Position numbers and translations under genes: made by a program. From assembly GCF_054482595.1 (NCBI RefSeq), contig NZ_CM137008.1: a DNA stretch of 64,000 nt; one strand, written 5' to 3'. The notes under the pieces were generated by a model. It made no database searches. It was not told the origin of the DNA and saw nothing but the letters and a program-made list of their open reading frames with translations. Positions 1,030 through 63,773 of this stretch are shown here, in pieces (position 1 is the first letter of the stretch; the number at the start of each line of letters is the position of its first letter).

Positions 1030-1106
<77 letters not shown>

Positions 1107-1139
1107 TCACCGTATTGCTTTTACTTCATCAAATTTGAT

Positions 1140-1216
<77 letters not shown>

Positions 1217-1249
1217 TCACCGTACTGCTTTACTTCATCAAATTTTAAT

Positions 1250-1326
<77 letters not shown>

Positions 1327-5811: not shown

Positions 5812-6017
5812 AAAAAAAAGCACCGCAATTAGGCGGTGCTACATTAATCACTATGGACAGACAGGGTAAATGTACAGGAAGTGAAAAAAGGTAGCTTTGC
5901 TACCATGGTCTGAATCGCAGACCAATTGCAAACACAACAACACAACATCACAACCGTAAGCCAAAAGTTCACCAGAACACGCATTCCGATAAAACTTTTC
6001 GTTCCGGCTCAGGAAGT
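5812..6017 (-). ncRNA. gcvB: GcvB small regulatory RNA
   Basis: Minus strand reads ACTTCCTGAGCCGGAACGAAAAGTTTTATCGG...GU-rich GTTGTGATGTTGTGTTGTTGTGTTTG...terminator hairpin plus U-run; divergent from gcvA. Confidence 0.88.
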
Positions 6018-35061: not shown

Positions 35062-37296
35062 ATGGTTGCGGTAAGAAGTGCACATATCAATAAGGCTGGT
35101 GAATTTGATCCGGAAAAATGGATCGCAAGTCTGGGTATTACCAGCCAGAAGTCGTGTGAGTGCTTAGCCGAAACCTGGGCGTATTGTCTGCAACAGACGC
35201 AGGGGCATCCGGATGCCAGTCTGTTATTGTGGCGTGGTGTTGAGATGGTGGAGATCCTCTCGACATTAAGTATGGACATTGACACGCTGCGGGCGGCGCT
35301 GCTGTTCCCTCTGGCTGATGCCAACGTAGTCAGCGAAGATGTGCTGCGTGAGAGCGTCGGTAAGTCGGTCGTTAACCTTATTCACGGCGTGCGTGATATG
35401 GCGGCGATCCGCCAGCTGAAAGCGACGCACACTGATTCTGTTTCCTCCGAACAGGTCGATAACGTTCGCCGGATGTTATTGGCGATGGTCGATGATTTTC
35501 GCTGCGTGGTCATCAAACTGGCGGAGCGTATTGCTCATCTGCGCGAAGTAAAAGATGCGCCGGAAGATGAACGCGTACTGGCGGCAAAAGAGTGCACCAA
35601 TATCTACGCGCCGTTGGCGAACCGTCTTGGGATTGGGCAACTGAAATGGGAGCTGGAAGATTACTGCTTCCGTTATCTCCACCCGACCGAATACAAACGC
35701 ATCGCAAAACTGCTGCATGAACGCCGTCTCGACCGCGAACACTATATCGAAGAGTTTGTCGGCCATCTGCGCGCTGAGATGAAAGCTGAAGGCGTTAAAG
35801 CTGAAGTGTATGGTCGTCCGAAACACATCTACAGTATCTGGCGCAAAATGCAGAAAAAGAACCTCGCCTTCGATGAGCTGTTTGATGTGCGTGCGGTACG
35901 TATTGTCGCCGAGCGTTTACAGGATTGTTATGCCGCACTGGGGATAGTGCACACTCACTATCGCCACCTGCCGGATGAGTTTGACGATTATGTCGCTAAC
36001 CCGAAACCAAACGGTTATCAGTCTATTCATACCGTGGTTCTGGGGCCAGGTGGCAAAACCGTTGAGATCCAAATCCGCACCAAACAGATGCATGAAGATG
36101 CAGAGTTGGGTGTTGCTGCGCACTGGAAATATAAAGAGGGCGCGGCAGCTGGCGGCGCACGTTCGGGACATGAAGACCGGATTGCCTGGCTGCGTAAACT
36201 GATTGCGTGGCAGGAAGAGATGGCTGATTCCGGCGAAATGCTCGACGAAGTACGCAGCCAGGTCTTTGACGACCGGGTGTATGTCTTTACGCCGAAAGGT
36301 GATGTCGTTGATTTGCCTGCGGGATCAACGCCGCTGGACTTCGCTTACCACATCCACAGTGATGTCGGACACCGCTGCATCGGGGCAAAAATTGGCGGGC
36401 GCATTGTGCCGTTCACCTACCAGCTGCAGATGGGCGACCAGATTGAAATTATCACCCAGAAACAGCCGAACCCCAGCCGTGACTGGTTAAACCCAAACCT
36501 CGGTTACGTCACAACCAGCCGTGGGCGTTCGAAAATTCACGCCTGGTTCCGTAAACAGGACCGTGACAAAAACATTCTGGCTGGGCGGCAAATCCTTGAC
36601 GACGAGCTGGAACATCTGGGGATCAGCCTGAAAGAAGCAGAAAAACATCTGCTGCCGCGTTACAACTTTAATGATGTCGACGAGTTGCTGGCGGCGATTG
36701 GTGGCGGGGATATCCGTCTCAATCAGATGGTGAACTTCCTGCAATCGCAATTTAATAAGCCGAGTGCCGAAGAGCAGGACGCCGCCGCGCTGAAGCAACT
36801 TCAGCAAAAAAGCTACACGCCGCAAAACCGCAGTAAAGATAACGGTCGCGTGGTGGTCGAAGGTGTTGGCAACCTGATGCACCACATCGCGCGCTGCTGC
36901 CAGCCGATTCCTGGAGATGAGATTGTCGGCTTCATTACCCAGGGGCGCGGTATTTCAGTACACCGCGCCGATTGCGAACAACTGGCGGAACTGCGCTCCC
37001 ATGCGCCAGAACGCATTGTTGACGCGGTATGGGGTGAGAGCTACTCCGCCGGATATTCGCTGGTGGTCCGCGTGGTGGCTAATGATCGTAGTGGGTTGTT
37101 ACGTGATATCACGACCATTCTCGCCAACGAGAAGGTGAACGTGCTTGGCGTTGCCAGCCGTAGCGACACCAAACAGCAACTGGCGACCATCGACATGACC
37201 ATTGAGATTTACAACCTGCAAGTGCTGGGGCGCGTGCTGGGTAAACTCAACCAGGTGCCGGATGTTATCGACGCGCGTCGGTTGCACGGGAGTTAG
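35062..37296 (+). CDS. relA: GTP pyrophosphokinase ((p)ppGpp synthetase I)
   Basis: 744-aa ORF with RelA/SpoT synthetase, TGS and ACT regions. Confidence 0.93.
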   Translation: MVAVRSAHINKAGEFDPEKWIASLGITSQKSCECLAETWAYCLQQTQGHPDASLLLWRGVEMVEILSTLSMDIDTLRAALLFPLADANVVSEDVLRESVGKSVVNLIHGVRDMAAIRQLKATHTDSVSSEQVDNVRRMLLAMVDDFRCVVIKLAERIAHLREVKDAPEDERVLAAKECTNIYAPLANRLGIGQLKWELEDYCFRYLHPTEYKRIAKLLHERRLDREHYIEEFVGHLRAEMKAEGVKAEVYGRPKHIYSIWRKMQKKNLAFDELFDVRAVRIVAERLQDCYAALGIVHTHYRHLPDEFDDYVANPKPNGYQSIHTVVLGPGGKTVEIQIRTKQMHEDAELGVAAHWKYKEGAAAGGARSGHEDRIAWLRKLIAWQEEMADSGEMLDEVRSQVFDDRVYVFTPKGDVVDLPAGSTPLDFAYHIHSDVGHRCIGAKIGGRIVPFTYQLQMGDQIEIITQKQPNPSRDWLNPNLGYVTTSRGRSKIHAWFRKQDRDKNILAGRQILDDELEHLGISLKEAEKHLLPRYNFNDVDELLAAIGGGDIRLNQMVNFLQSQFNKPSAEEQDAAALKQLQQKSYTPQNRSKDNGRVVVEGVGNLMHHIARCCQPIPGDEIVGFITQGRGISVHRADCEQLAELRSHAPERIVDAVWGESYSAGYSLVVRVVANDRSGLLRDITTILANEKVNVLGVASRSDTKQQLATIDMTIEIYNLQVLGRVLGKLNQVPDVIDARRLHGS

Positions 37297-37299
37297 GCC

Positions 37300-37350
37300 G
37301 AAATTTGCTCGTATCTACAATGTAGATTGATATATACTGTATCTACATAT
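37300..37350. promoter_or_regulatory. mazEF promoter/operator with palindromes
   Basis: atctacaAtgtagat perfect 7-bp-arm palindrome followed by tatactgtatctacatatgata; immediately upstream of mazE. Confidence 0.65.
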
Positions 37351-37373
37351 GATAGCGGTTTGAGGAAAGGGTT

Positions 37374-37622
37374 ATGATCCACAGTAGCGTAAAGCGTTGG
37401 GGAAATTCACCGGCGGTGCGGATCCCGGTTACGTTAATGCAGGCGCTCAATCTGAATATTGATGATGAAGTGAAGATTGACCTGGTGGATGGCAAATTAA
37501 TTATTGAGCCAGTGCGTAAAGAGCCCGTATTTACGCTTGCTGAACTGGTCAACGACATCACGCCGGAAAACCTCCACGAGAATATCGACTGGGGAGAGCC
37601 GAAAGATAAGGAAGTCTGGTAA
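37374..37622 (+). CDS. mazE: Antitoxin MazE (AbrB/SpoVT fold)
   Basis: 82-aa [21 protein letters not shown]; stop overlaps mazF start. Confidence 0.92.
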
Positions 37623-37957
37623 TGGTAAGCCGATACGTACCCGATATGGGCGATCTGATTTGGGTTGATTTTGACCCGACAAAAGGTAGCGAGCAAGCTG
37701 GACATCGTCCAGCTGTTGTCCTGAGTCCTTTCATGTACAACAACAAAACAGGTATGTGTCTGTGTGTTCCTTATACAACGCAATCAAAAGGATATCCGTT
37801 CGAAGTTGTTTTATCCGGTCAGGAACGTGATGGCGTAGCGTTAGCTGATCAGGTAAAAAGTATCGCCTGGCGGGCAAGAGGAGCAACGAAGAAAGGAACA
37901 GTTGCCCCAGAGGAATTACAACTCATTAAAGCCAAAATTAACGTACTGATTGGGTAG
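37622..37957 (+). CDS. mazF: Toxin MazF (ACA-specific mRNA interferase)
   Basis: 111-aa [28 protein letters not shown]. Confidence 0.92.
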   Translation: MVSRYVPDMGDLIWVDFDPTKGSEQAGHRPAVVLSPFMYNNKTGMCLCVPYTTQSKGYPFEVVLSGQERDGVALADQVKSIAWRARGATKKGTVAPEELQLIKAKINVLIG

Positions 37958-38027
37958 TGTTACTAACTCACTTCTATTCTGGTCACAGGTTTCCACCTGA
38001 CAGACCCGCAATTTTCAGGACAATTCA

Positions 38028-38819
38028 ATGAATCAAATCGACCGTTTGCTCACTATTATGCAGCGCCTGCGCGATCCGGAAAACGGCTGCCCGTGGGATA
38101 AAGAGCAGACATTTGCCACCATTGCGCCTTACACCCTTGAAGAAACCTACGAAGTGCTGGACGCCATCGCCCGTGAAGATTTTGACGATCTTCGCGGTGA
38201 ACTGGGCGATCTGCTATTCCAGGTGGTGTTTTACGCGCAAATGGCTCAGGAAGAAGGGCGCTTTGACTTTAATGATATTTGCGCTGCTATTAGCGATAAA
38301 TTAGAGCGTCGCCATCCGCATGTTTTTGCTGATAGTTCTGCCGAAAACAGTAGTGAAGTGCTTGCCCGTTGGGAGCAAATCAAAACCGAAGAGCGCGCGC
38401 AGAAAGCGCAGCATTCGGCGCTGGACGATATTCCTCGTAGTTTACCGGCTTTAATGCGTGCGCAAAAAATCCAGAAACGTTGCGCCAACGTTGGCTTCGA
38501 CTGGACGACGCTTGGCCCAGTGGTTGATAAAGTCTACGAAGAGATCGACGAGGTGATGTACGAGGCACGGCAGGCTGTTATCGACCAGGCTAAACTGGAG
38601 GAGGAAATGGGTGACCTGCTGTTTGCCACGGTCAATCTGGCTCGTCATTTAGGGACAAAAGCGGAAATCGCATTGCAAAAAGCGAACGAAAAATTCGAGC
38701 GTCGTTTTCGCGAAGTGGAGCGTATTGTTGCCGCGCGTGGATTGGAAATGACAGGTGTTGACCTCGAAACAATGGAAGAAGTCTGGCAACAGGTAAAACG
38801 GCAGGAAATTGATCTCTAA
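38028..38819 (+). CDS. mazG: Nucleoside triphosphate pyrophosphohydrolase MazG
   Basis: 263-aa ORF with tandem MazG domains. Confidence 0.9.
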   Translation: MNQIDRLLTIMQRLRDPENGCPWDKEQTFATIAPYTLEETYEVLDAIAREDFDDLRGELGDLLFQVVFYAQMAQEEGRFDFNDICAAISDKLERRHPHVFADSSAENSSEVLARWEQIKTEERAQKAQHSALDDIPRSLPALMRAQKIQKRCANVGFDWTTLGPVVDKVYEEIDEVMYEARQAVIDQAKLEEEMGDLLFATVNLARHLGTKAEIALQKANEKFERRFREVERIVAARGLEMTGVDLETMEEVWQQVKRQEIDL

Positions 38820-39031
38820 GGGAATTACGCGGTCAAGCGCCATTTGTGTCATTTTTTAAATGACAAGCGCTTGATTTGCGTCAAAAACATTTACCCCAAA
38901 GGGGCTATTTTCTCACTCCTGATTTCAATAGTGCGCTGGCGAAGAGGAGGGATAATGAAAGTTTGTGGCACAGGTCATGTTCGGGTATACTGCTTTCCCG
39001 TCCTGGTTATTCCATCGTCTTTTCAACCTAA

Positions 39032-40684
<1,653 letters not shown>

Positions 40685-42129: not shown

Positions 42130-43035
42130 TTACCAGCGGCCGGATGCGCCGCCACCTCCAGAAGAACCGCCCCCGCCGCTAAATCCGCCGCCACTTGAGC
42201 CTCCACCGGAAGAGGATGAAGAAGAACCTTTTCTTGAAGCTCTTTCTTTACTGAGTTTTTTGTATTTGGCGCGTAGCTTTTTATTGACGATAAGCCAAAA
42301 AATAACCAGTGGTACGATCGCAAAAGGCGTTAACATACCGCAGGCAACGATTAAATTGGTCCATGGTCCTGGCTCGGCAACATAGAGGAATACCATCCCG
42401 TAAATGGCGCCAGTGAGAGTGATCCAGGGTAAATTCGACGGATCGGTAAAAACAATAAAATATGAAAGTACCGCCAGCAATATAATTACAGCAAGCGATA
42501 ATGGAATAGGGGGATTGATACTGTAATAATCCCCCCTGTCTTCCGGTAATTCACCATTTAACAGAAGCGCGCCGATATTTTCGCTTGCCAGTGTTAATCC
42601 ACCCATCAGGTCATCACTTTTGAAGGCAGGGATCAATATATCCCTGATAATCTTCGCCGCTTGCAGGTCGGTAACCACCCCTTCCAGCCCGTAGCCAACC
42701 TCAATACGAACAGCATGATCCTCCCAGGCAACCAGAAGTAAAATACCATCGTTTCTCTGCTTATCTCCCAGTTTCCAGCTATCAAAAACCCTTGTAGCAT
42801 ATTGTTCAATGGAATCGTCTCCGGTGGACGGCACTACTAATACAGCGACCTGCGCCCGTGTTTTATGTGTAATATCCTGCAGTTGCTGTGTCAGTGATTG
42901 TTGTTCAGAAGTGCTTAACGTACCAGTAATATCGGTCACCTGTTGGCGCAGTTCCGGCACAGCAATTTGCTGGGCAAGCCCAGGAAGACACCACAAAGTG
43001 AATAGAATAAAGATTAAGCGCATTACGATCACCAA
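42130..43035 (-). CDS. TPM-domain membrane protein (YgcG-like), paralog 3 of a tandem triplet
   Basis: 301-aa ORF: signal peptide, TPM-type region (VAVLVVPSTGDDSIEQYATRVFDSWKLG...LLLVAWEDHAVRIEVGYGLEG), hydrophobic helices, Gly/Ser tail ending SGRW; start may be the internal Met at 43023. Confidence 0.75.
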   Translation of the reverse strand: MVIVMRLIFILFTLWCLPGLAQQIAVPELRQQVTDITGTLSTSEQQSLTQQLQDITHKTRAQVAVLVVPSTGDDSIEQYATRVFDSWKLGDKQRNDGILLLVAWEDHAVRIEVGYGLEGVVTDLQAAKIIRDILIPAFKSDDLMGGLTLASENIGALLLNGELPEDRGDYYSINPPIPLSLAVIILLAVLSYFIVFTDPSNLPWITLTGAIYGMVFLYVAEPGPWTNLIVACGMLTPFAIVPLVIFWLIVNKKLRAKYKKLSKERASRKGSSSSSSGGGSSGGGFSGGGGSSGGGGASGRW

Positions 43036-44177
43036 CGGCCGGATGAACCGCCGCCTCCTGAAGAACCGCCACCACCGCGGAAAGAATTTCTCGACGAAGA
43101 GCGAGAGTGAGCATTACGATTCCCCGTTTTCCTGTTGCTTTTTTCTCCTGATCCCAGCTTAAGATTGCCAGTAAATTTGGCCACAATGATCAGCAGAACG
43201 ATGCCAGCAATGGTTATTGGACCGATAAAATGATCAATTAACCCAATAATTGTTGAGATGAATGCAATATCTTTAATACTGGCGAACACCAGGCACCATC
43301 CCACAATAATTATCAGCATCACGACAAACAATGAATTTCGTCCTGATTCACGAACCTGCGGAGTCTTCTTTTGTTTTTTCACTTTAGCGTTTTTATTTTT
43401 TGGGGCCAGCATCATAGGAAATACGCGGCACAAATTAAAAACTACCGCGAGACGCTGCTTGCAGGTTGTTGCTAACAATAAACTAAAACAAACGATCGAC
43501 ACCCGCCGAATGATGACATCGTCCTGAAAGGAGAAAAACCAGACCATAGGGGTAATCATCGATATCATCCATATGCCACGCCGTGGGCGGCTGGCAAATC
43601 GCCAGAGGACAACGATGGCAACGATCATCAGCAGTGTCCAGGCAAGACATGGCAGCGAACGTTGCGGATTAGCAAACAGATGATTGGCTAAAGCATCCAA
43701 AGGGCTAAGGTTCGCTTTGATATGGGTAAACTGTGCGATGCTTTCAATTCCGCCCGTTAATCCAGCAAAGAGATTGTTTTTTTCGAATTCTGGCTGCATA
43801 TGGTAACGAACAATTTGCGCAGCTTGTTCCGGCGGCAACATCTGTTCCAGTCCATGTCCAATCTTCATTGACGCCAGCCCTTCCGGCCATACGACGAGAA
43901 TTAAGATACCTTCGCCATATCGCTTCTCTCCAACGGGTTTCCAGTGATATACCCCGTATCTCTGCGAGGCTGCAAGTTTAATGTTTTTGCCCCCTGTGGT
44001 CGGCGTAACCAACACGGCCACCTGGAAGTGGTTTTGCTGCTCGAGAGTCTGTAATTGTTGAGTTAAAGCAGTTTGTTCTTCTGTCGTTAATGTCCCGGTT
44101 AAGTCAGTCACTGAAGGCAATCGTTCAGCGAATACCTGAAAACCGCATAGCATCAGAAGTAAGAGAAAAATACGCAT
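43029..44177 (-). CDS. TPM-domain membrane protein, divergent paralog 2
   Basis: 382-aa ORF: signal peptide, TPM-type region (VAVLVTPTTGG...ILILVVWPEG...GHGLEQ), several hydrophobic helices, Lys-rich linker, Gly/Ser tail ending SGRW. Confidence 0.7.
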   Translation of the reverse strand: MRIFLLLLMLCGFQVFAERLPSVTDLTGTLTTEEQTALTQQLQTLEQQNHFQVAVLVTPTTGGKNIKLAASQRYGVYHWKPVGEKRYGEGILILVVWPEGLASMKIGHGLEQMLPPEQAAQIVRYHMQPEFEKNNLFAGLTGGIESIAQFTHIKANLSPLDALANHLFANPQRSLPCLAWTLLMIVAIVVLWRFASRPRRGIWMISMITPMVWFFSFQDDVIIRRVSIVCFSLLLATTCKQRLAVVFNLCRVFPMMLAPKNKNAKVKKQKKTPQVRESGRNSLFVVMLIIIVGWCLVFASIKDIAFISTIIGLIDHFIGPITIAGIVLLIIVAKFTGNLKLGSGEKSNRKTGNRNAHSRSSSRNSFRGGGGSSGGGGSSGRW

Positions 44178-44191
44178 ATCAATTCCTTTTG

Positions 44192-45115
44192 TTACCAGCG
44201 CCCGGAAGCGCCACCGCCACCAGATGAACCGCCACCACCGCTAAAATTGTCATTGTCGAATGAAGAGGATGACGATGATGAATAGTGGGAGAAAGAATTG
44301 CTTCTTGTATGGCGTGATGGCTGGTTGGCATCACGCATCAAATCCCGAACTTTTTTGCCGAAGGGGGTAAAAGCGATGGCGACAGCCAGGAACGGTGTGG
44401 CGAAGCAGAGTAATGTTGTGAGTACTCCCCAGCTTCCGCTGAAACCTGCTATAGGTAAAACAAAGGCCAGTACAATAGCTGCGAAGCAAATTACTCCCAG
44501 CGTTTTGATATATCCTCTGGCAGAAATAAACGTCAGTACTATCGCCCAGGCTAACAAGGCCCACCAACCGCTAAAAGGTAAAGGGTGATCGGCCGGTGCT
44601 ATCGTCGCTAAATTATTCCCTGCCAAACGGTTTTCAATATCGCTGAGTCCCTTTTGCAAGCCGCCAGCAAGATCACCATTTTTAAATGCCGGAATAATAC
44701 TGTTGCGAATAATTTGCCCGGACTGCGCATCCGTAATAATACCTTCCAGTCCGTAACCGATTTCAATACGCACGGTATGATCCTGCCAGGCGACTAACAG
44801 TAGAACGCCATCATCGCTGTCTTTATCACCCGGTTTCCAGCTATCGAATACCCGCGTTGCGTACTGCTCGATGGTTTCATCGCCTGTTGTATCAACCACT
44901 AACACGACCAACTGTGCGTGGTTTTTTTGCGTCAGGGCTTTAATCTGGTTGGTCAGGGTGTTTACTTCGCTGTTTGTTAATGTGCCGGTTAAGTCATTCA
45001 CATACTTGGGGGATTCAGGTACTGGAATTTGTGTGGCAAACACAGATGAACAGAAGAAAGCCATAAGGAAGATAAAATTTCGCACAGAACTTCCCCGCTT
45101 AATGAGCATTAGCAT
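44192..45115 (-). CDS. TPM-domain membrane protein, paralog 1
   Basis: 307-aa ORF very similar to 42130..43035 (LVVLVVDTTGDETIEQYATRVFDSWKPG...LLLVAWQDHTVRIEIGYGLEG), Gly/Ser tail ending SGRW; start codon ambiguous among the first Mets. Confidence 0.75.
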   Translation of the reverse strand: MLMLIKRGSSVRNFIFLMAFFCSSVFATQIPVPESPKYVNDLTGTLTNSEVNTLTNQIKALTQKNHAQLVVLVVDTTGDETIEQYATRVFDSWKPGDKDSDDGVLLLVAWQDHTVRIEIGYGLEGIITDAQSGQIIRNSIIPAFKNGDLAGGLQKGLSDIENRLAGNNLATIAPADHPLPFSGWWALLAWAIVLTFISARGYIKTLGVICFAAIVLAFVLPIAGFSGSWGVLTTLLCFATPFLAVAIAFTPFGKKVRDLMRDANQPSRHTRSNSFSHYSSSSSSSFDNDNFSGGGGSSGGGGASGRW

Positions 45116-45701
45116 TCTGGCTAAAATCTATTGTTGGGGCTTTACTTACTGCGGCGACATCATCCGGTAAATAATTTTTCTTTGGCGTGTAATCCATGAC
45201 CTTTGCGGTTAATACAGCGGGGAATTTGCGGATAGTGACATTATATTGTTCAATGGCTTTAATATATCTTCCTCGCGCAACGGCAATTCTATTTTCACTT
45301 CCTTCGAGCTGTACCATTAAGTTTTGATAGAGTTCCTGAGATTTTAACTCAGGGTAACGCTCACTAATTATCGTTAACTGACCGAGAGTGCGAGTCACCT
45401 GCGCTTGAGCCTGTTGCCAGGCTTGTAATTTTTGTTCATCTCCCGGAGTTTGCTGAAGATCGCTACTGGCGCGATTAGCCTGGCTACGAGCCAATGTTAC
45501 GGCTTCCAGTACATCTCGTTCATGGCTGGAATAACCTTTAATGCTGGCGACAAGATTAGGAATAAGATCGGCGCGACGTTGATATTGATTCAATACCTCA
45601 GACCAGGAGGCGTTAACCTGCTCATCATAGGTTTGAATATCGTTATATCCACAGCCTGATAAATTGAAAATAAATATAATTACGATGAATATTCTGAGCA
45701 T
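45099..45701 (-). CDS. LemA-family protein (predicted lipoprotein)
   Basis: 200-aa ORF; N-terminal hydrophobic segment with lipobox LSGC; LemA-like helical region; first gene of the operon. Confidence 0.75.
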   Translation of the reverse strand: MLRIFIVIIFIFNLSGCGYNDIQTYDEQVNASWSEVLNQYQRRADLIPNLVASIKGYSSHERDVLEAVTLARSQANRASSDLQQTPGDEQKLQAWQQAQAQVTRTLGQLTIISERYPELKSQELYQNLMVQLEGSENRIAVARGRYIKAIEQYNVTIRKFPAVLTAKVMDYTPKKNYLPDDVAAVSKAPTIDFSQNANAH

Positions 45702-46883: not shown

Positions 46884-47339
46884 GAGTTCCCCGCGCCAGC
46901 GGGGATAAACCGGCCTGGCGATTTCTCGTCAGGCCTTGCGGTGTGAGTTCCCCGCGCCAGCGGGGATAAACCGTCAGTAAAGCGGCGCCCACTGATATCG
47001 GATTAGAGTTCCCCGCGCCAGCGGGGATAAACCGAGGGGCAGGGAGTGACGCTGGAGCAGGCGATCGAGTTCCCCGCGCCAGCGGGGATAAACCGGGAAA
47101 TTAGGCAAATGTGAACACGGCGGCCCCGAGTTCCCCGCGCCAGCGGGGATAAACCGCCAGTATTTTGTCGTGGATTGCGGGATCACCAGAGTTCCCCGCG
47201 CCAGCGGGGATAAACCGTTGAGTTTGTTCGTAACAACGCGGGTCATCTGGAGTTCCCCGCGGCAGCGGGGATAAACCGGGTACAAAAGAGGCCCCATTCT
47301 GGCAGGGCTCAAGTTCCCCGCGCCAGTGGGGATAAACCA
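46884..47339 (+). CRISPR. Type I-E CRISPR array: 8 repeats of 29 nt, 7 spacers of 32 nt, no adjacent cas genes
   Basis: Repeat GAGTTCCCCGCGCCAGCGGGGATAAACCG at 46884, 46945, 47006, 47067, 47128, 47189, 47250 (one C-to-G variant) and degenerate terminal repeat aagttccccgcgccagtggggataaacca at 47311; exact 61-nt period. Confidence 0.95.
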
Positions 47340-63038: not shown

Positions 63039-63773
63039 ATGTCCAAACTCGATCTAAACGCCCTGAACGAACTGCCGAAGGTAGATCGCATTCTGGCGCT
63101 GGCGGAAACTAACGCCCAACTGGAAAAACTGGACGCTGAAGGCCGCGTAGCCTGGGCGCTGGATAATCTGCCCGGTGAATATGTGCTTTCTTCCAGCTTC
63201 GGCATTCAGGCGGCGGTGAGCCTGCATCTGGTGAATCAGATTCGCCCGGATATTCCAGTGATCCTCACCGATACCGGTTACTTGTTCCCGGAAACCTACC
63301 GCTTTATCGATGAGTTAACGGACAAACTCAAGCTCAACCTGAAAGTGTACCGTGCTACCGAAAGCGCAGCCTGGCAGGAAGCACGCTACGGAAAACTGTG
63401 GGAACAGGGCGTTGAAGGCATTGAAAAGTACAATGACATCAACAAAGTCGAACCGATGAACCGGGCGCTGAAAGAACTTAACGCGCAAACGTGGTTTGCT
63501 GGCCTGCGCCGTGAACAATCCGGCAGCCGCGCCAATTTACCGGTGCTGGCAATTCAGCGTGGCGTATTTAAAGTGCTGCCGATTATCGACTGGGATAACC
63601 GAACGATATATCAGTATCTGCAAAAGCATGGCCTGAAATATCACCCATTATGGGACGAAGGATATTTATCGGTGGGCGATACCCATACAACCCGTAAATG
63701 GGAACCCGGCATGGCGGAAGAAGAAACGCGTTTCTTTGGCTTAAAAAGGGAATGTGGGTTACACGAAGGGTAA
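63039..63773 (+). CDS. cysH: Phosphoadenosine phosphosulfate (PAPS) reductase
   Basis: ORF 62886..63773; start chosen at [15 protein letters not shown] (244 aa) after RBS gaggaa; C-terminal ECGLH motif. Confidence 0.92.

Follow-up and report, generated by a model that had tools for sequence, protein, structure and literature searches.

Chromosomal mazEF (chpAI/chpAK) of Escherichia coli K-12 lies in the relA-mazEFG operon (b2784-b2781), where a type II toxin-antitoxin pair stands between the genes for RelA and MazG. Here we describe the corresponding locus in a 64,000-nt stretch of DNA (NCBI RefSeq assembly GCF_054482595.1, contig NZ_CM137008.1; hereafter the window), which carries relA, mazE, mazF and mazG at positions 35062-38819. 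The K-12 operon has the same gene order, the same 77-bp and 70-bp gaps and the same 1-nt overlap; both intergenic regions, including the alternating palindrome upstream of mazE, are identical, as is the RelA protein. The two loci differ at 56 bases in 3758 bp (compared with MG1655), of which 53 are synonymous and the others give the protein changes MazE A19V, MazF C51Y and MazG V185I.

The mazEF/pemIK (parD/kis-kid) addiction modules of plasmids share this two-gene layout, in which a PemK/MazF toxin is preceded by an AbrB-type antitoxin, and carry inverted repeats upstream of the antitoxin gene. MazF from a Klebsiella IncF plasmid is 70% identical to the window MazF with all catalytic residues kept, but the plasmid antitoxin is only 36% identical to the window MazE, the operator sequence is different, and the window copy stands in the chromosome, enclosed by relA and mazG. 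Among mobile elements the closest relatives, at 60-80% DNA identity, are the mazEF pairs of 141 plasmids, most of them conjugative. A search of PLSDB returned no near-identical plasmid copy, the sole 99% "plasmid" match being a 4.8-Mb record, i.e. a chromosome, and the phage collection that we searched contained no close MazF (best match 51% identical, Pantoea phage G19).

Two further systems help to place the locus. The second MazEF-like pair of E. coli, chpBIK (chpS/chpB), belongs to the same families, as seen in weak NCBIfam cross-matches (54.8 bits for ChpB and 33.8 bits for ChpS), but these scores fall far under the ChpB and ChpS equivalog cut-offs (129 and 101); the window pair is MazEF proper. 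Genomes in which relA and mazG adjoin without mazEF (E. coli GMF054, UTI89 according to the literature, Salmonella, Citrobacter and Klebsiella) share with the window the rlmD-relA and mazG-pyrG flanks and the last 34 bp before mazG, but where the window has a 697-bp cassette they have a spacer of 61 bp that contains a hairpin (12-bp stem) and a T-run.

The relA-mazEFG locus and its probable insertion site

We identify the region, with a probability of about 0.96, as the chromosomal relA-mazE-mazF-mazG locus of E. coli, in which mazEF is a canonical type II toxin-antitoxin cassette. The gene order given in the initial annotation was borne out by the list of open reading frames (ORFs) and the raw sequence, and so were the 77-bp gap between relA and mazE (37297-37373) and the single shared nucleotide of mazE and mazF: the mazE stop codon TAA occupies 37620-37622 and the mazF ATG 37622-37624, an overlap of exactly 1 nt (TAATG, 37620-37624; gtctggTAATGgta). 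The remark that the arrangement is well described in K-12 is also correct. The 3758-bp region is 100% identical in 13 RefSeq E. coli chromosomes among the matches listed, in which the genes are annotated relA, mazE, mazF and mazG, and the whole window shows 4 base differences from strain XH990.

Profile searches, which extended the MazE and MazF family searches proposed in the initial annotation, placed all four proteins above the curated cut-offs of the named families. RelA matched the NCBIfam equivalog NF008124 over residues 1-744 with 1678 bits (cut-off 728), and its Pfam domains HD_4 (42-191), RelA_SpoT (251-360), TGS (406-465), RelA_AH_RIS (483-646) and ACT (665-740) follow the HD(pseudo)-SYNTH-TGS-AH/RIS-ACT order of a full-length long RSH protein. 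MazE scored 193.6 bits against NF007312 (cut-off 113), matched PF04014 at E=5.5e-13 and is identical at 81 of 82 residues to the solved E. coli structures PDB 1MVF/1UB4; its gene thus encodes an AbrB/MazE/SpoVT-domain antitoxin directly upstream of the toxin gene, as expected of a MazEF module. For MazF, the initial annotation had held that a MazF-like ORF lacking the PemK/MazF fold would speak against it. The ORF matched both PF02452 PemK_toxin (E=1.1e-23; 83.9 bits, cut-off 23.1) and the equivalog NF007386 (225.6 bits, cut-off 120), and 110 of its 111 residues are identical to the solved E. coli structures PDB 3NFC/5CK9/1UB4. The catalytic residues E24, R29 and T52 (E. coli numbering) are all present and are invariant in an alignment with K-12 and with plasmid and phage homologues that are 53-70% identical; what the corresponding Arg and Thr do has been reported (PMC10893535). 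MazG matched TIGR00444 over residues 10-257 with 419 bits (cut-off 148) as well as NF007113, and PF03819 matched it in two stretches, which indicates tandem domains at full length.

A scan across species used MazG as the query and one genome per species, and the 80 returned loci were searched with RlmD, RelA, MazE, MazF, MazG and PyrG. In these loci of other Enterobacterales species relA was followed by mazG in 80/80, and matches to MazE or MazF were found in 0/80. The set includes E. albertii, two "E. coli"-named Escherichia of other species clusters, Salmonella, Citrobacter, Klebsiella and Enterobacter, and reaches out to Pectobacterium and Moellerella. Among 5426 complete E. coli genomes, a cassette-only query (37297-38027) was covered to at least 80% in 4415 (81%), and the empty junction taken from strain GMF054 was covered to at least 80% in 1007, so that carriers and empty sites together account for 5422. 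A BLAST search with the whole locus found 5422 of 5426 genomes at a coverage of at least 80%, but this figure was not taken to show how many carry mazEF: the 3758-bp query is covered to more than 80% even by a genome that lacks the cassette.

In alignments with GMF054 and other Escherichia, the cassette begins immediately after the relA stop codon, and its right-hand junction falls at 37993/37994, where the shared sequence restarts with CACCTGACAGACCCGC. The stop context of relA (AGT TAG vs AAT TAA) was considered as part of the cassette and rejected, since the empty-site strain GMF054 likewise reads AGT TAG. The guanine-cytosine content of the cassette is 36-48%, against 54% in relA. In GMF054 the 61-bp spacer (L084 3448-3508), which comes right after relA, folds as the 12-bp-stem hairpin with the T-run behind it (-31.4 kcal/mol, z=-5.0) and looks like a relA terminator or a repetitive extragenic palindromic (REP) element that the cassette replaced. 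The MazG of the window, accession WP_001071643.1, is also encoded by an E. coli that lacks mazEF.

The same site has taken other forms elsewhere. The relA-mazG spacer of E. albertii (L006 5740-6000) retains, in degenerate form, about 35 nt of the left and about 40 nt of the right cassette end with REP-like elements between them, and its left scar holds a degenerate, one-base-deleted operator palindrome (GTGTCTACAAGTAGATTGA). This spacer is a decayed mazEF locus, a third state beside cassette and empty site. Unrelated inserts occupy the site in Buttiauxella (Hcp, PF05638, with a DUF4225 protein and a 109-aa membrane protein) and in Klebsiella spallanzanii (a fimbrial chaperone-usher operon), and a similar 109-112-aa membrane protein with no Pfam match lies directly upstream of mazG in loci L043 (4341-5928), L033 (710-5960) and L017 (5566-5904). 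Fraikin, Goormaghtigh and Van Melderen (2020) described relA-mazG as an undisturbed operon in strains such as UTI89, noted that the site can hold other elements, e.g. parDE in Salmonella, and saw no functional link between mazEF and its flanking cistrons (PMC7167474).

The best explanation of these data is that an older gene order, rlmD-relA-mazG-pyrG, had its 61-bp hairpin spacer replaced by mazEF, a mobile cassette of 697 bp. Because mazEF is absent from all 80 loci of other species and from 1007 of the 5426 E. coli genomes, its position beside relA is best read as an insertion site and not as an evolved functional unit. The statement in the initial annotation that the arrangement sets a growth-arresting endoribonuclease between a (p)ppGpp synthetase and MazG thus holds as a description of the gene order, with the qualification that the order reflects an insertion polymorphism and not a conserved design.

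Operator, antisense RNA and proposed working

A 77-nt gap between relA and mazE has been reported before (10.1101/048728), and the mazEF promoters P2 and P3 are described as repressed by MazE and by MazE-MazF through an alternating palindrome, in which a middle part "a" pairs with an upstream "c" or a downstream "b", and as activated by Fis (PMC4803016). A repeat search recovered this arrangement in the window. The palindrome atctacaAtgtagat (37313-37327) consists of the arms ATCTACA (c, 37313-37319) and TGTAGAT (37321-37327), which are 100% complementary with 1 nt between them. In a second pairing the middle arm a, (A)TGTAGAT, read as ATGTAGAT (37320-37327), is 100% complementary to arm b, ATCTACAT (37341-37348), and a direct repeat, GTATCTACA, occurs twice, at 37311-37319 and 37339-37347. 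The palindromic operator with an adjacent repeat that the initial annotation had placed in this gap is therefore present in the form of a three-arm palindrome plus direct repeat.

Perfect palindromes with 7-nt arms and a loop of 0-3 nt number 28 in the window, yet the three-arm alternating arrangement, in which the middle arm has a partner on each side, occurs at a single site, 37313. Of 20,000 dinucleotide-preserving shuffles of the 77-bp relA-mazE gap, 2 produced this arrangement, against 416 that produced a single palindrome. The operator is invariant across six divergent E. coli alleles, whereas gap positions 37304, 37306, 37308, 37354 and 37356 vary; the whole gap is the same as that of K-12. 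As sequence anatomy, this element would be the palindromic autoregulatory operator expected of a MazEF module. A terminator scan found no terminator-like site in the relA-mazE gap or in the mazF-mazG spacer, and folding of the relA-mazE gap gave z=-0.06, i.e. no significant structure. A gap free of terminators and structure is consistent with the read-through from relA that has been reported.

An element missing from the initial annotation is aMEF, an antisense RNA predicted here by transfer of the K-12 annotation, which lies opposite the operator, mazE and the first part of mazF. The transferred transcript has its 5' end 40 nt inside mazF, spans all of mazE and the operator and ends in the last 34 nt of relA. 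Its sequence is identical to that of K-12 at 399 of 400 positions, the lone difference being the A19V base, and the 75-bp fragment that contains its promoter (37663-37737) is identical to that of K-12. A scan of 36800-39100 against Rfam at E values up to 1 gave no match; aMEF has no Rfam family. Van Gundy et al. (2022) found that the aMEF promoter is non-canonical and that in K-12 the RNA stimulates rather than represses mazEF expression, independently of RNase III (PMC8749433). Within the 75-bp promoter fragment we also observed a perfect palindrome, GCTGGAC-ATC-GTCCAGC (37697-37713), in mazF codons A26-A31, which include R29. It may be a chance occurrence, as about one such palindrome is found per 2.3 kb in the window.

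According to the literature, MazE is degraded by ClpAP and Lon. In the working that we propose for the module, such a labile AbrB-type antitoxin would neutralise MazF by its C-terminal tail and, alone or together with MazF, would repress its own promoters at the alternating palindrome, as described in the literature. The one-base stop/start overlap would couple translation of MazF to that of MazE. Once free, MazF, an endoribonuclease of the PemK/MazF fold, would cut single-stranded RNA at ACA, as the K-12 protein does (literature cited in PMC8749433 and PMC5888573). MazF has been reported to cleave its own mRNA (PMC5888573), and the excess of ACA sites in mazF (9 sites or 26.8 per kb, against 2 sites in mazE and an average of 12.3 per kb over the window) fits this report. 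With no terminator between mazF and mazG, mazG would be co-transcribed, as has been reported together with inhibition of the MazG protein by MazEF (PMC4803016; PMC12541390), and read-through from relA would be possible since the 77-bp gap likewise contains no terminator; a relA-mazEFG operon has been reported (PMC7167474). Finally, aMEF would start inside mazF, run back over mazE and the operator and, if it acts as in K-12, stimulate mazEF expression.

Strain variants and alternative readings

The differences from K-12 are unevenly spread over the locus. In relA there are 40 synonymous and 0 non-synonymous differences, in mazG 13 synonymous ones plus V185I, and in the two intergenic regions 0. 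Within the cassette there are 2 non-synonymous and 0 synonymous differences; relA and mazG on its flanks together have 1 and 53. A claim of selection from the 2:0 ratio was rejected as under-powered, the cassette lying in a 1.6-kb block of low divergence with 3 differences in total. Among the most divergent E. coli alleles mazE shows 0-5 synonymous and 0 non-synonymous changes and mazF 4-6 synonymous and 0-1 non-synonymous changes; mazEF is under purifying selection across these alleles.

MazE A19V results from C>T at 37429, a base that also lies inside aMEF, and MazF C51Y from G>A at 37773, in a residue that adjoins the catalytic T52. Exact matches to the MazE V19 61-mer occur in 13 of 4418 genomes; 783 contigs encode the V19 protein. 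The MazF Y51 61-mer was exact in 1009 complete genomes (about 23% of carriers) and the C51 61-mer in 3352, and the Y51 and C51 proteins are each encoded on at least 1000 contigs. Both positions tolerate change, since residue 51 of MazF is C or L in homologues and residue 19 of MazE is A or T. We consider it very unlikely that the V19/Y51 pair of this small lineage differs functionally from the K-12 pair, whether in toxin activity, in substrate preference, in affinity for the operator or in the pairing of aMEF.

We considered whether the module of this strain is attenuated or decaying, with C51Y and A19V (the latter in the DNA-binding domain) as loss-of-function or compensatory changes on the way to a loss like that in E. 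albertii. E. albertii shows that the locus is able to decay, but the mazE and mazF ORFs are intact here and score far over their equivalog cut-offs. Position 51 abuts T52, yet R29, T52 and E24 are themselves intact, and the range of residues at the two sites among homologues (C, L or Y at MazF 51; A, T or V at MazE 19) argues that such changes are tolerated. Although V19 is rare (13/4418 genomes), Y51, with exact matches in 1009 complete genomes and its protein on 1000 contigs or more, is an old and widespread allele. The operator is unchanged, and so is the aMEF region apart from the A19V base. The 2:0 count in the cassette against 1:53 in its flanks relative to K-12 speaks for this reading, but no statistical claim can rest on two substitutions. 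We regard attenuation as highly improbable.

The other alternative concerns the placement of the module. The relA-mazEFG operon, the repression of mazEF by ppGpp and the inhibition of MazG by MazEF that have been reported (PMC4803016; PMC12541390; PMC7167474) could be combined into a functional, evolved stringent-response unit, in which ppGpp made by RelA shuts off the transcription of mazEF and so frees MazF, and MazG then lowers ppGpp, ending the episode. The lack of terminator-like sites on either side of mazEF would suit such a unit, and so would the fact that 81% of complete E. coli genomes retain the cassette and that it is under purifying selection, but the same survey found the site empty in 1007 of 5426 genomes, one of which encodes the identical MazG protein. 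Outside the species, relA and mazG adjoin without mazEF at every one of the 80 loci, E. albertii and two lineages filed as E. coli among them, and unrelated inserts (Hcp-DUF4225; a fimbrial operon) stand at this position in other taxa. The 2020 review denies a functional link with the flanking cistrons (PMC7167474), and the strains on which the model of ppGpp-triggered programmed death rests were relA and mazG mutants (10.1101/048728). We consider an evolved unit unlikely and retain insertion of a mobile cassette as the explanation of the gene order.

The account of the region as a working mazEF locus has some gaps. A sigma-70 consensus scan over 4.7 kb gave 4 matches where 4.4 were expected by chance, and just one of them (37349-37378), which runs over the mazE ATG, lies in the relA-mazE gap. 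As no promoter in the gap stood out above chance, P2 and P3 are assigned to it by the literature only. The MazE (A19V) and MazF (C51Y) of this strain differ from the proteins that have been studied experimentally, and their full activity is assumed. In addition, the role of mazEF is disputed, with programmed death, growth arrest, phage defence and conflicts at rRNA operons all put forward (10.1101/048728; PMC7167474; PMC12541390; PMC12151602); the recent proposals are defence against RNA phages (PMC12151602) and conflict resolution at rRNA operons (PMC12541390). Nothing that we found contradicts the identification of the locus.

Features of the locus and of the wider window

The coordinates of the locus are collected in Table 1. 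Its neighbours are barA (-) and rlmD (+) on one side and pyrG (+) on the other.

Table 1. Features of the relA-mazEFG locus, in window coordinates.
Feature	Position	Strand	Description	Basis
relA	35062..37296	+	GTP diphosphokinase ((p)ppGpp synthetase I), 744 aa, TAG stop	ORF and profile matches
mazEF cassette	37297..37993	+	697 bp, in place of the 61-bp hairpin spacer	alignments to GMF054 and other Escherichia
relA-mazE intergenic region	37297..37373	+	77 bp, mazEF promoter/operator	sequence; promoters P2/P3 and Fis site from PMC4803016
Alternating palindrome	37311..37348	.	operator	repeat search; fits the description in PMC4803016
Shine-Dalgarno-like GAGGA	37362..37366	+	7 nt before the mazE ATG	read from the sequence
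mazE	37374..37622	+	type II antitoxin, AbrB/MazE/SpoVT DNA-binding N-domain and MazF-binding tail, 82 aa	ORF and profiles
mazF	37622..37957	+	ACA-specific endoribonuclease toxin, 111 aa	ORF and profiles
mazF-mazG spacer	37958..38027	+	70 bp, without terminator-like site; final 34 bp common to empty-site genomes	scan and alignments
mazG	38028..38819	+	nucleoside triphosphate pyrophosphohydrolase, 263 aa, two MazG domains	ORF and profiles
aMEF (ameF)	37263..37662	-	predicted antisense RNA	coordinates transferred from K-12 RefSeq ncRNA ameF b4844

The 227-bp spacer between mazG and pyrG contains, just behind the stop codon of mazG, a long inverted repeat (38833-38874; TCAAGCGC...TGTCATTT/AAATGACA...GCGCTTGA), possibly a terminator or else a leader element of pyrG.

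At its 3' edge the window contains a match to the sok antitoxin RNA (RF01794; 63896-64000, +), which scored 67.5 bits against a gathering score of 59 and is truncated where the window ends. The match, a relic of a type I toxin-antitoxin RNA, is flanked by cysH (end at 63773) and by a cas3 gene whose start falls just past the window. Because of this match mazEF is not strictly the sole toxin-antitoxin element in the window: the initial annotation, which had called it the only such module, was right for protein (type II) modules, as judged by the XH990 annotation, but not once the sok RNA is counted.

Further observations concern other parts of the window. The CsrB small RNA (24198-24557, +; 380 bits) lies 6 kb from barA (30900-33656, -), the gene for the sensor kinase whose two-component system drives csrB transcription. 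GcvB (5812-6017, -) adjoins gcvA, the small RNA ES036 (2754-2796, +) lies upstream of tcdA, and three tandem tRNA-Met genes are found at 1033-1326 (-). A cluster of TPM-domain genes with a LemA-family gene (42130-45701, -) lies downstream of eno, and one of its TPM genes (about 44414-45085) is annotated in XH990 as a truncated pseudogene. Between queE and ygcE there is a CRISPR array at about 46884-47339 (Tandem Repeats Finder match 47128-47278) with type I-E repeats (GAGTTCCCCGCGCCAGCGGGGATAAACCG), which the XH990 annotation likewise marks as CRISPR.

The locus, its operator, the antisense RNA and the insertion type of evolution are all previously published. What the present analysis places on record are two natural protein variants, MazE A19V and MazF C51Y, and clean presence/absence numbers for the cassette, 4415 against 1007 of 5426 complete E. 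coli genomes. Were the V19/Y51 pair functionally distinct after all, the 2 non-synonymous and 0 synonymous differences of the cassette would mean selection and not drift. The view of mazEF as an insertion, itself already in the literature, corrects the tempting idea that the toxin was purposefully set between a ppGpp synthetase and MazG.

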